In this document: positions 24,725 to 27,714 of the stretch, one piece after another
Layout of the letters: each line of letters opens with the position of its first letter
Numbering within the stretch: position 1 is the stretch's first letter
Notes under the pieces: model-generated
What the model saw: the letters and a program-made list of their open reading frames with translations, nothing else
What the model was told of the DNA's origin: nothing
Database searches by the model: none
DNA from: Candidatus Rokuibacteriota bacterium
GTDB lineage: Bacteria; Methylomirabilota; Methylomirabilia; Rokubacteriales; CSP1-6
Direction: 5' to 3'
Length of the DNA: 60,410 bases
Assembly (NCBI GenBank): GCA_050731755.1
Contig: JBOHPP010000072.1
Location: forward strand, 1-60,410
Translations under genes and position numbers: made by a program

Positions 24725-25474
24725 ATGCCGCGATTCGAGGTCATCGGCGTCGAAGGGATCCCCGAGGTCCGTCCGGGCGACGATCTCGCCCGCCAGATCG
24801 CCGAGGCGGCGGCGCGCCAGGGCACAATGTTGCGGGGTGGCGATCTGCTCGTCGTGGGGCAGAAGGTTGTCTCCAAGGCCGAAGGCCGGTTGGTGAGCCT
24901 CGCCGAGGTGACGCCGTCGCCGGCGGCCGTCCGCATGGCCGCCGAGCTGGGCCGCGATCCTCGGCTGGTCGAGGTGATCCTGAGGGAGTCCCGGCGCATC
25001 GTCCGCATGGACCGCGGCGTGCTCATCACGGAGACGCGCCACGGCTGGGTCTGTGCCAATGCCGGCGTCGACCAGTCCAACGTCGAGCGCGACTGGGTCG
25101 CGTTGCTGCCCGAGGACGGCGACCGCTCGGCGCAGCGGCTGCGGGAGGCGCTGCGGGAGCGCGCCGGCGTCGATGTCGCCGTCATCATCTCCGACACCTT
25201 CGGCCGGCCGTGGCGGGAGGGGCTGACGAACGTGGCCGTGGGCGTGAGTGGGATCGCCCCGCTCGTGAGCTATCTGGGCGAGCGCGATCCGGCTGGCCAC
25301 GTGCTCCAGGCGACCATCCTGGCCGTCGCCGACGAGGTCGCCGGCGCCGCCGAGCTGGTGATGGGCAAGCTGAGCCGGATCCCGGTGGCCATCGTCCGCG
25401 GCCTCGGCGTGGCCCCGAGCGAGGAGGGTTCCAAGCCCCTGCTTCGCGACCCGGCGCGCGACCTGTTCCGGTGA
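24725..25474 (+). CDS. cofE: F420-0:gamma-glutamyl ligase (ligase domain only)
   Basis: MPRFEVIGVEGIPEVRPGDDLA...VVGQKVVSKAEGR...GWVCANAGVDQSNV is CofE-like. At 249 aa there is no C-terminal nitroreductase-like extension. Confidence 0.9.
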   Translation: MPRFEVIGVEGIPEVRPGDDLARQIAEAAARQGTMLRGGDLLVVGQKVVSKAEGRLVSLAEVTPSPAAVRMAAELGRDPRLVEVILRESRRIVRMDRGVLITETRHGWVCANAGVDQSNVERDWVALLPEDGDRSAQRLREALRERAGVDVAVIISDTFGRPWREGLTNVAVGVSGIAPLVSYLGERDPAGHVLQATILAVADEVAGAAELVMGKLSRIPVAIVRGLGVAPSEEGSKPLLRDPARDLFR

Positions 25475-26127
25475 TGGCGCCCATGAACATCGCGATCCTC
25501 GGTGGCACCGGCAAGGAGGGCACCGGCCTGGCCGCGCGCTGGGCCCTGGCCGGCCACGCGATCATCATTGGCTCGCGAGACGAAGAGCGTGCCAAGGCCA
25601 AGGCCGTCGACCTGCGCGAGCTGACGCGCAAGCTCACCATCATCGGCCACACCAACGCTGAAGCGGCGCGCTTGGGCCAGATGGTGGTCGTCGCGCTCCC
25701 GGCCGCCGGGCTGGCCACCACGCTGCCCGAGCTGCGCGAGGCCTGCCGGGGCAAGGTCGTCCTGAGCACGGTGGTGGCGCTCGACTTCAAGGGCCCGCGT
25801 CTCTTCACCCTGCCGGCGGCCGGCTCGTCCGCGGAAGAGACGCAGGCGCTGCTCCCGGAGGCCCGCGTGGTGGCGGCCTTCCACCACATCGCCGCCCACG
25901 AGCTGGCCGACACGCAAGAACCCATCGATTGCGATCTGCTCCTGTGCGGGGACGACGCAGACGCCAAGCTGACGGTGACTCGGCTCGGCGAGTCGATGCG
26001 GCTCCGCGTCGTGGACGTCGGCCCCCTCAGCAACGCCGCAGCTCTGGAGGGCATCACCGCCGTCCTGGCCACCATCAACCGTCGCTACAAGCTCAGGAAC
26101 GCCGGCATCAAGATCACCGGCCTCTGA
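25474..26127 (+). CDS. npdG: NADPH-dependent F420 reductase
   Basis: MAPMNIAILGGTGKEGTGLAARWALAGHAIIIGSR Rossmann start. TGATG overlap with the cofE stop. The N-terminal extension in the track ORF was rejected. Confidence 0.8.
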   Translation: MAPMNIAILGGTGKEGTGLAARWALAGHAIIIGSRDEERAKAKAVDLRELTRKLTIIGHTNAEAARLGQMVVVALPAAGLATTLPELREACRGKVVLSTVVALDFKGPRLFTLPAAGSSAEETQALLPEARVVAAFHHIAAHELADTQEPIDCDLLLCGDDADAKLTVTRLGESMRLRVVDVGPLSNAAALEGITAVLATINRRYKLRNAGIKITGL

Positions 26128-26151
26128 GGAGCGCATCGAGAGGAGACCGTC

Positions 26152-27231
26152 ATGGCTGACCAGCCCATCGTCGTCACCCACACCCGCCTTCACGAGTTCA
26201 TCGTCGACGTGCTGGTCGCCATGAAGACGCCCCCGCCGCCGGCCGATCTCACGGCCGCTCTCATGGTGCGCACCGACCTGCGCGGCGTGGACTCGCACGG
26301 GATCGGCATGCTGCCCCGCTACCACGAGCTCTGGCAGGCCGGCTTCATCGTACCCGAGGCCGAGCCGGTGGTGGTCCGGGACGACCTGGCCACCGGACTG
26401 CTCGACGGTCAGAAGGGGCTGGGCCACTACGTGTCGACGCTGGCCATGCGCCGGGCCATCGCCCAGGCGCGCACCTATGGCATCGGGATCGTGGCGGTGC
26501 GGAACTCGAATCATTACGGCGCCGCCGCCAACTACTCGATGATGGCGCTCGAGCACGACATGATCGGGTTCAGCACCACGAACTCGCCGTACGTGGCGAT
26601 GGTCCCCACCTTCGCGCGCGCGGCCATGCTGTCGACGAACCCGATCTCGTTCGCCGCCCCCGCCGGCCGCCACGCGCCCTTCGTGCTGGACATGGCCACC
26701 ACGACGGTGGCCGTCGGCAAGCTCTCGGTGGCGGCGCGCTGGAGGAAGCCGATCCCGTCGGGCTGGGCGGTCGACGAGCGCGGCTCCGCGACCATCGATC
26801 CGTTCGTGGCCCTCAAGCACCGGCTGCTCACGCCCCTGGGAGGCACGCGCGAGTTGGGCAGCCACAAGGGCTACGGCCTGGGTGTGATGGTGGACATCCT
26901 CGCCGGCGTCTTGGGCGGCGCCGTCTACGGCGACCTCTTCCTCCGCACCGACATGAAGGAGCGCCGCGTGCACAACGTCGGCCACTGCTTCGCCGCCATC
27001 GACCCCGCGCGCTTCCGGCCTCTGGACGAGTTCAAGCGCGACATGGACGACATGATCGAGGCCCTCAAGACCGCGCCCCGCGCCGAGGACCAGGAGCGGA
27101 TCTACGTCGCCGGCGAGCCCGAGGCCGAGTGCGAACGGCAGCGGCGGCAGGAGGGCATTCCCCTGGCTCCCGCGCTGGTCGAGCAGTGCGCCGGGATGGC
27201 CCGCGGCCTGGGGATCAAGCCGCTGGCCTGA
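26152..27231 (+). CDS. Ldh_2-family (malate/L-lactate/sulfolactate type) dehydrogenase
   Basis: DLRGVDSHGIGMLPRY, VAVRNSNHYGAAANY, STNPISFAAPAG and VLDMATTTVAVGK are hallmark Ldh_2 blocks. GAGAGGAGA RBS. Confidence 0.8.
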   Translation: MADQPIVVTHTRLHEFIVDVLVAMKTPPPPADLTAALMVRTDLRGVDSHGIGMLPRYHELWQAGFIVPEAEPVVVRDDLATGLLDGQKGLGHYVSTLAMRRAIAQARTYGIGIVAVRNSNHYGAAANYSMMALEHDMIGFSTTNSPYVAMVPTFARAAMLSTNPISFAAPAGRHAPFVLDMATTTVAVGKLSVAARWRKPIPSGWAVDERGSATIDPFVALKHRLLTPLGGTRELGSHKGYGLGVMVDILAGVLGGAVYGDLFLRTDMKERRVHNVGHCFAAIDPARFRPLDEFKRDMDDMIEALKTAPRAEDQERIYVAGEPEAECERQRRQEGIPLAPALVEQCAGMARGLGIKPLA

Positions 27232-27237
27232 TTCGGT

Positions 27238-27714
27238 CTATCGGCCCGCGTCTCCCGGGGTGCGCCACTTCCGGTGCACCGATCGCATCTGGGGAGTCAG
27301 CACGTTCTCCCATCTCGTGTGCATGACACGATCGATCCACAGCTCGAAGAGGATCTCCGACGCGTCGGCCATGTGCTTCGCGTCCCGCAAGACTGCGGCC
27401 CGCGTCGCCGAATCTTCGACCAGACGGGCGTGGCCCACGACGTAGAACTCGTCGCTTCCGGGCTTCGGCTGGGGAAACGTCTGAAGCGCGTACCTGCCGT
27501 CGCGCAGCAGGTCGTGGCGCTTCGGCGACGTGGGCGTGATCAGAACGAAGAGATGGTCGCTGGACAGCACCGGGCATACCGGGTGCAGGCGTGGGGCACC
27601 GTCCCTGCGCACCGTGGCGAGAAACGCCAGGCCGACACCGAACTGCTGGAGTAGCGAGCGGCCGACGCCGGCCAGCTCGGGCTCGACGGCAGCGAACTCA
27701 TTCCACGTGACCAT
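27238..27714 (-). CDS. pyridoxamine-5'-phosphate-oxidase-like split-barrel protein (possible F420/FMN-binding FDOR)
   Basis: LAFLATVRRDGAPRLHPVCPVL...LFVLITPTSPKRHDLLRDGRYALQ is typical of the PPOX/FDOR fold. Confidence 0.6.
   Translation of the reverse strand: MVTWNEFAAVEPELAGVGRSLLQQFGVGLAFLATVRRDGAPRLHPVCPVLSSDHLFVLITPTSPKRHDLLRDGRYALQTFPQPKPGSDEFYVVGHARLVEDSATRAAVLRDAKHMADASEILFELWIDRVMHTRWENVLTPQMRSVHRKWRTPGDAGR

Follow-up and report, generated by a model that had tools for sequence, protein, structure and literature searches.

Organization of the F420 gene cluster

The stretch of DNA analysed here (the window) comprises 60,410 nucleotides and is contig C72 of a 3.57-Mb metagenome-assembled genome (MAG) that is 96% complete. 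It carries a cluster of genes for the biosynthesis of the cofactor F420 and, directly behind these, a gene encoding a 2-hydroxyacid dehydrogenase of the Ldh_2 family, the role of which is considered in the following. Close homologs of the window proteins bear the names Candidatus Rokubacteria or Rokuibacteriota. Gene identities in the window were assigned with Pfam and NCBIfam models, and the junctions between the genes were read directly from the DNA.

The cluster lies on the forward strand. The genes cofG (19563..20768, likely start at 19623; TIGR03550, 458 bits against a cut-off of 213) and cofH (20746..22011; TIGR03551, 466 bits against 374) encode the two subunits of FO synthase. They are followed by cofD (22936..23865; TIGR01819, 330 bits against 257), the product of which belongs to the 2-phospho-L-lactate (2-PL) transferase family, and by cofC (23862..24542; TIGR03552, 141 bits against 105), which encodes a guanylyltransferase of the 2-PL/phosphoenolpyruvate (PEP) type. 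Further downstream, cofE (24725..25474; TIGR01916, 293.3 bits against 180.65) encodes the F420-0:gamma-glutamyl ligase and npdG, or fno (25474..26127; TIGR01915, 206.4 bits against 149.8 over the full length), the NADPH-dependent F420 reductase. The Ldh_2 gene (26152..27231; PF02615, 388.8 bits against 38.8) codes for a protein of 359 amino acids (aa). A gene on the reverse strand, which encodes a 158-aa protein of the PPOX/PNPOx fold (27238..27714; PF01243, 31 bits against 28.1), converges on it. All these genes and junctions were found where a preliminary description of the window, made from the sequence alone, had placed them.

The stop codon of cofE (TGA, 25472-25474) and the start codon of npdG (ATG, 25474-25476) share one base in a TGATG junction. 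A spacer of 24 nt with a GAGAGGAG ribosome-binding site separates the stop codon of npdG from the ATG of the Ldh_2 gene, and only 6 bases lie between the Ldh_2 stop codon and the end of the convergent PPOX gene. Upstream, the spacer between cofC and cofE (24543..24724) is filled with GGTTTGGAGGGGG-containing repeats and holds a terminator-like hairpin (24650-24678) of 13 pairs followed by TTTTATGGTT. This hairpin may attenuate transcription of cofE-npdG-Ldh_2 or separate it from that of cofGHDC. No other terminator-like site was detected in the region 24400-27900, and since there is none between cofE, npdG and Ldh_2, these three genes are probably transcribed together.

The preliminary description had called the 249-aa CofE a ligase-only protein, and the family models bear this out. 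Residues 4-249 match positions 1-244 of TIGR01916, so that the protein fits the model from end to end with no extra domain. The model for the two-domain FbiB (PRK13294/NF009810) was matched at positions 13-243 of 449 only, which is the N-terminal half, with 264.8 bits against a cut-off of 304. The cofE gene is present in a single copy in the genome.

Distribution and synteny of the Ldh_2 gene

In the preliminary description, the Ldh_2 enzyme or the convergent PPOX/FDOR-like protein was put forward as a candidate for the step that is missing from the formation of the lactyl moiety of F420. Our survey of the phylum covered 151 genomes (the source genome and 150 others). CofE was present in 120 of them, 97 from the order Rokubacteriales and 23 from sister families. 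For synteny, 76 Rokubacterial cofE or Ldh_2 loci from the genomes of relatives were mapped with our own gene caller, which is based on the GC content at third codon positions (GC3), and with blastp against the window proteins. Searching the 151 genomes for Ldh_2 yielded an ortholog group with 61-79% identity and paralogs with at most 47% identity. The linkage of Ldh_2 to cofE-npdG extends beyond this genome: the intact orthologs number 47, and of these, 35 are situated downstream of cofE at a distance of 0.7-4.5 kb and on the same strand, five are located directly behind npdG in clusters that are split between cofE and npdG, two have been relocated and five could not be placed at contig ends. 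The block conserved across the order is LLM-cofG-cofH-HU-orf151-cofD-cofC-cofE-npdG-[Ldh_2]-CopD-HAD-IscS-like-TusA, where LLM stands for a luciferase-like oxidoreductase and the last four genes are on the strand opposite to the F420 genes.

Among the 97 CofE-positive genomes of the order, the Ldh_2 gene is intact in 45, fragmented or interrupted in seven and missing in 45. In 34 genomes the syntenic site was inspected directly and holds no Ldh_2: CopD or HAD comes straight after npdG, and cofGHDCE-npdG is intact. The closest relatives as judged by CofE (82-84% identity; G063, G098, G138 and G100) do not carry the gene. Six of the seven decayed or interrupted copies lie beside the F420 genes. 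The remnants comprise residues 1-135 in G013 and G017, residues 72-107 and 302-358 in G015, residues 276-359 in G036 and residues 258-358 in G126. The copy in G081 is interrupted by an in-frame stop, as is that in G115, which comprises residues 1-241 and is located 4.7 kb downstream of cofE. As the losses are scattered within genera g7, g8, g12, g14, g15 and g16, they represent repeated events. In the Ldh_2-negative genomes the F420 genes are intact and similarly conserved. In the sister families, which also have a ligase-only CofE and the operon order cofG-cofH-npdG-cofD-cofC-cofE, an intact Ldh_2 ortholog was found in none of the 23 CofE-positive genomes; a doubtful partial match with 59% identity lies at a contig end in one of them (G140).

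We also looked for the linkage outside the phylum, in a scan for Ldh_2 that covered the genomes of 185,579 species. Retrieval of homologs with the Ldh_2 protein itself returned only relatives with at least 71% identity and is uninformative on distant linkage. Homologs outside the phylum, in Chloroflexota, Bacteroidota and others, show at most 47% identity. None of the 75 nearest non-Rokubacterial Ldh_2 loci has cofC, cofD, cofE or npdG within 8 kb, and cofE is present elsewhere in the genome in eight of the 13 source genomes searched. In Chloroflexota, where CofE occurs in 164 of 251 genomes, 60 cofE loci were fetched with 7-kb flanks. An Ldh_2 gene is near cofE in one of these loci, compared to 24 with a nitroreductase gene, and by a rough estimate this single case is about what chance would give. 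The gene concerned (G224; L175 5383-6411) encodes a protein with 37% identity and lies about 650 bp from cofE in convergent orientation, in a locus without npdG.

As lineages outside the order do not show any linkage of Ldh_2 to F420 genes, the gene order indicates that the linkage is a single ancestral event inherited by descent and not a recurrent functional pairing. Where the gene is present, its divergence keeps pace with that of CofE and NpdG, which points to vertical inheritance under constraint and to a working gene. An obligatory component of F420 biosynthesis would be expected to co-occur with the intact cofE operon and to recur in unrelated lineages, and Ldh_2 does neither; about half of the relatives whose operon is intact and syntenic lack it or carry only decayed copies. 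Because lineages delete Ldh_2 or let it decay with their F420 genes unchanged, it is probably not the enzyme that forms the lactyl moiety, and we consider it likely that the locus is an ordinary archaeal-type F420 operon to which an accessory 2-hydroxyacid dehydrogenase has been added. The observations of the preliminary description on the linkage of Ldh_2, the ligase-only CofE, the lack of a reductase and the open lactyl step thus stood, while its proposal that Ldh_2 or the FDOR-like protein fills the gap did not.

Several points weigh against this reading. The position of Ldh_2 behind npdG is kept across the entire order, the gene remains beside npdG in the split clusters (G037, G102, G118, G134 and G148), and it is under purifying selection where present. 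With its position kept order-wide and selection maintaining it, some functional tie of Ldh_2 to F420 or to Fno is plausible. Its loss could also be tolerated because a substitute enzyme takes over: a paralog with about 45% identity is common in the order, and this genome has one with 33% identity. Moreover, the chemistry of the side chain is deduced entirely, and F420 in Rokubacteria is known from genes alone. On the technical side, all genomes are MAGs, so that some absences could be assembly gaps, although the 34 empty sites were read directly; the genes in related loci were called with the crude GC3-based caller, and the presence/absence tallies were transcribed by hand from result tables.

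A tie to Fno could take the form of a redox partnership, in which NADPH obtained from F420H2 drives the reduction of a 2-oxoacid by Ldh_2, or the reverse, so that a 2-hydroxyacid/2-oxoacid couple is linked to F420. This would fit the start of Ldh_2 only 24 nt behind the npdG stop codon with no terminator-like site between them, as well as the split operons, where Ldh_2 remains with npdG and not with cofE. However, the split is a single breakpoint that keeps the right-hand flank together too and therefore gives no independent information. In addition, at least 34 genomes have kept npdG without Ldh_2, and in Chloroflexota npdG is found in 17 of the 60 cofE loci while the lone Ldh_2 homolog is in a locus without it. 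We regard such a partnership as unlikely.

Some loci deviate from the conserved order. The split is found in one group of genera (L030, L032, L038, L039 and L040 on the cofE side, L031 and L033 on the other), where cofE is followed by four or five other genes and npdG-Ldh_2 lies on another contig with the CopD-HAD-IscS-like flank. In a second family of the order (G137, L018 6709-11294; also L019, L020 and L021) extra genes surround Ldh_2: a PlsC-type acyltransferase gene (PF01553) and a creatininase-family gene (PF02633) between cofE and Ldh_2, and a further luciferase-like oxidoreductase gene (PF00296) behind it. The archaeal deformylase ArfB, which belongs to the pathway for riboflavin/FO precursors, is a member of the creatininase family. 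The two relocated Ldh_2 genes have neighbours, named from reading the sequences, that give no clue to the substrate, namely a CaiB-type CoA transferase and an aminotransferase in G021 and a Nudix gene and an ABC transporter in G028.

Identity of the Ldh_2 protein

PF02615 covers residues 9-345 of the 359 residues of the Ldh_2 protein. The closest solved structures are 1V9N (PH1277 of P. horikoshii, 247 bits) and 2X06 (ComC, 205 bits), and the SHG and NSNHYG motifs of both are kept; DSHGIGMLPRY and NSNHYG are conserved in the alignment. We take SHG, R-Y and NSNHYG to be the catalytic His/Arg motifs of the family. No NCBIfam equivalog cut-off was reached: the protein scored 245.7 bits against a cut-off of 500 with the ComC L-sulfolactate dehydrogenase model NF040650, and the other equivalogs (PRK10098, AllD and DlgD) also remained below their cut-offs. 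These matches are best read as pointing to an oxidoreductase of the archaeal MdhII/ComC-like branch that interconverts 2-oxoacids and 2-hydroxyacids with NAD(P)H.

The protein thus resembles the (R)-sulfolactate dehydrogenase ComC/MdhII (MJ1425, 2X06) and PH1277 in its family, full-length match and motifs, but differs from ComC in staying below the equivalog cut-off. In archaea, ComC serves the biosynthesis of coenzymes, namely coenzyme M and methanopterin. Neither of these is known to be made by Rokubacteria. Enzymes of the Ldh_2 family reduce bonds of the C=O or C=N type that are adjacent to a carboxylate, and reduction of the C=C bond of an enol ether is not known for the family. Graupner et al., in 2000, reportedly examined whether the MdhII enzymes of M. 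jannaschii reduce pyruvate and could thereby provide the lactate of F420, with a negative outcome. For the characterised enzymes of the ComC branch, sulfopyruvate and oxaloacetate are the preferred substrates (PMC5695019).

Absence of a known side-chain reductase

Bacteria that build the F420 side chain from PEP reduce it with a nitroreductase-fold enzyme, which is either FbiB's C-terminal domain (PDB 4XOM, 4XOO and 4XOQ) or, in Thermomicrobia, the stand-alone FbiE (PMC8498797, PMC8764529). These are the known solutions to the missing step. The window does not contain any nitroreductase-fold gene, as the preliminary description had observed for the cluster. In the whole genome there are three (PF00881), all on other contigs: one encodes a SagB-type two-domain protein, one a BluB-like protein of 250 aa (C83:7811-8563) and one a protein of 169 aa (C64:28605-29114) that is the best match to the FbiB_Cterm family. 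With the model for the FbiE/FbiB C-terminal reductase (TIGR03553, cut-off 249.55), the best score in this genome was 39.8 bits, in two fragments, and the best among the 151 genomes of the phylum was 67.5 bits, so that none exceeded the cut-off. As positive controls, four cofE-linked nitroreductases from Chloroflexota gave 132-155 bits over the full length of TIGR03553, which was their best family. The genome-wide search that the preliminary description had suggested for a stand-alone homologue of FbiB's C-terminal domain thus came out negative. It is possible but unlikely that an FbiE-type gene was missed in a genome that is 96% complete. The reductase gap is real and phylum-wide, yet it is already a recognised open question.

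One of the generic nitroreductases (169 aa or 250 aa) could nevertheless act as dehydro-F420-0 reductase, in a split FbiB system with the reductase encoded elsewhere in the genome. Both candidates have the required fold, and the 169-aa protein, besides its weak match to FbiB_Cterm, was found by FbiE-like queries from Chloroflexota with 22-39% identity. However, the scores are far below those of the FbiE-type controls, and BluB-like models score higher. When 16 cofE-linked nitroreductases from Chloroflexota were used as queries, these two generic proteins were the only matches in this genome (22-41% identity, at most 58 bits), and no match was obtained in the Rokubacterial F420 loci. Neither gene lies near F420 genes. 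Their orthologs are limited to 34 and 30 of the 150 other genomes and do not follow the distribution of CofE, which is present in 120 of 151. Across genomes there was no complementarity between Ldh_2 and the two nitroreductases, and 20 CofE-positive genomes of the order have none of these three genes and no PPOX gene either. Altogether, a role of either protein as dehydro-F420-0 reductase appears very unlikely.

The last of the proposed substitutes is a PEP/dehydro-F420-0 route in which Ldh_2 or the convergent PPOX/FDOR-like protein takes the place of FbiB's C-terminal domain. In its favour, an FbiE-type enzyme is not present, and split-barrel enzymes of the FDOR type can use F420H2 for the reduction of activated C=C bonds. 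Ldh_2, on the other hand, is dispensable, and reduction of enol ethers is not known from its family. The PPOX-like protein scored 37.5 bits with the F420-PPOX (FDOR-B) model TIGR03618, well below the cut-off of 79.05, and passed only the PNPOx_N fold model. Its orthologs were detected in 20 of the 150 other genomes, never on the contig that carries cofE, and the gene is in none of the 76 mapped cofE or Ldh_2 loci. These data indicate a local insertion of the PPOX gene that is specific to this genome, at a junction that varies among relatives and outside the conserved block. We consider reduction by either protein extremely improbable, and the suggestion that the FDOR-like protein fills the gap was not upheld.

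The junction at the operon end before CopD (window 27232-27747; L008, L009, L157 and L161) is a variable insertion point. At the same junction, G146 carries a gene for a secreted-looking protein of 332 aa and G074 one for a response-regulator-looking protein of 136 aa. The place of Ldh_2 is taken in G111 and G130 by a TPR-like gene with a length of about 422 aa.

In Chloroflexota, the nitroreductase-fold genes within the 7-kb flanks of cofE (24 of 60 loci; L164-L223) are in many cases directly adjacent to it. A WAPSPHGRQPWRF motif was present in eight of the 16 cofE-linked nitroreductases that were extracted. This suggests that the split-FbiB arrangement is common across Chloroflexota, beyond Thermomicrobia.

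The CofC pocket and the source of the lactyl group

The solved structure that best matches the window CofC is 7P97 (64 bits). FGEPSF of the window protein aligns with FSGPSF of this structure, which places a Gly at the position of S162 in Mrhiz-CofC and G163 in Mtb-FbiD, and M91 and C95 of 7P97 are replaced by His and Val, respectively. Activation of 3-phosphoglycerate (3-PG) by CofC goes with a Ser or Thr at the S162 position, and since the window CofC has Gly at this diagnostic residue, the 3PG-F420 route is not predicted. Genomes with and without Ldh_2 share the same pocket motifs, and all aligned relatives have Gly at the 3-PG site, which argues against an Ldh_2-dependent change of the precursor. 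Given this Gly and the absence of a known reductase, the origin of the lactyl group would be the open step here, in the same situation as in methanogens and Proteobacteria.

One way for Ldh_2 to contribute to this step without being essential would be to reduce pyruvate to L-lactate, which a side activity of pyruvate kinase or a CofB-type kinase would convert to 2-PL, boosting the substrate of CofC; genomes that have lost the gene would then use other lactate. An Ldh_2-family enzyme of Alcaligenes eutrophus has reportedly been described as an L-lactate dehydrogenase. In a phylum without FbiE-type reductase and with a CofC of the 2-PL/PEP type, the 2-PL route is the simplest reading, and the position of Ldh_2 behind cofE-npdG is kept in 35 genomes. 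In addition, pyruvate kinase is described as forming small amounts of 2-PL from L-lactate in a side reaction (PMC6904873). Against such a supply, Ldh_2 has been lost or has decayed in 52 of the order's 97 CofE-positive genomes and is absent in the sister families, its linkage is not seen outside the order, and its presence does not co-vary with the CofC pocket. Furthermore, no kinase is linked to the cluster, and the substrate preference of the nearest characterised relatives, ComC/MdhII, is for sulfopyruvate and oxaloacetate. Overall, we judge this route distinctly unlikely.

In a more general form, Ldh_2 would be a dedicated but facultative precursor supplier, providing L-lactate or another 2-hydroxyacid that is phosphorylated and then used by CofC and CofD. 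We think this quite improbable. If it were true, Ldh_2-positive Rokubacteria should make more F420, or F420 with another side chain, than Ldh_2-negative ones, and the gene would be the first genetic handle on the source of 2-PL.

Proposed pathway and comparison with known systems

In the ordinary archaeal-type operon that we favour, CofG and CofH would make FO, CofC and CofD would attach a three-carbon phospho-acid to it, and the single-domain CofE would add the glutamates. NpdG/Fno would connect F420 to NADPH. F420-0 could be formed from 2-PL, as proposed for methanogens, or from PEP together with a reductase that is not of the nitroreductase type. Ldh_2 would have joined the operon end once, in the ancestor of the order, and would have been inherited vertically since; its deletion or decay in individual lineages with no change to the F420 genes would mark it as accessory. 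The enzyme itself may reduce some 2-oxoacid with NAD(P)H, possibly through the NADPH pool that Fno ties to F420H2.

This set of genes resembles the archaeal-type pathway of Methanocaldococcus jannaschii and of clusters in Proteobacteria (PMC8498797, PMC8764529), in which CofG and CofH are also separate and CofC, CofD, a single-domain CofE and Fno are present. The two further share the lack of a nitroreductase partner and the Gly at the 3-PG residue of CofC, and in both the source of 2-PL is open. The operon differs in its host, Rokubacteria, in the additional HU-like gene and GNAT-fold orf151, in the Ldh_2 gene of about half of the genomes and in being known from genes alone. Unlike the systems with FbiB C-terminal domain or FbiE, neither the genome nor the phylum has such a gene, and the fold is absent from Rokubacterial operon loci. 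The 3PG-F420 pathway of Mycetohabitans (7P97; PMC8764529) likewise has a single-domain CofE and needs no reductase, but the window CofC differs from that enzyme at all three positions described above (Gly for Ser162, His for M91 and Val for C95). In assays of CofC and CofD, use of the cognate pair has been shown to be essential (PMC8764529), and E. coli is an established host for F420 production (PMC8571402).

The literature has not settled where organisms with a ligase-only CofE obtain the lactyl group of F420 (PMC8498797, PMC8764529). Had the Ldh_2 proposal held, a missing enzyme of cofactor biosynthesis would have been identified; instead, one tempting candidate is removed, with Ldh_2 as a frequently lost passenger and the FDOR-like gene as a local insertion. 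The 120 CofE-positive genomes of Methylomirabilota/Rokubacteria without FbiE-type reductase indicate that the whole phylum does without this enzyme. Because of this, and in contrast to Chloroflexota with their cofE-linked nitroreductases, Rokubacteria offer a clean bacterial system in which to test for the 2-PL route or a reductase that is as yet unknown. The practical value of the analysis lies in correct annotation and in a sharper target list.

Additional genes of the conserved block

Between cofH and cofD lies orf151 (22476..22931, forward strand), which ends 4 nt before cofD and encodes a GNAT-fold protein. No Pfam or NCBIfam model matched it. Its AlphaFold2 model (pLDDT 66) gave GNAT acetyltransferases as the best Foldseek matches (TM about 0.55). 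As the model suggests a GNAT fold and no obvious reductase or kinase fold, orf151 was rejected as a candidate for the missing enzyme. An FMN barrel of the MJ0144 type was also discarded, being absent from the genome (27 bits, cut-off 219). Wherever an order-level locus spans cofH to cofD (28 of 28), orf151 is present, with or without Ldh_2, and no other uncharacterised gene is universal in the F420 operon of the Rokubacteriales.

The conserved block opens with a gene (18572..19537, forward strand; PF00296, 177 bits) for the luciferase-like oxidoreductase, which is probably F420-dependent, and according to the synteny maps it lies upstream of cofG in most related loci. A small gene inside the operon (22028..22366, forward strand) was labelled HU-like from the look of its sequence. 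Its homologue, with 62-89% identity, is located between cofH and orf151/cofD in all related loci.

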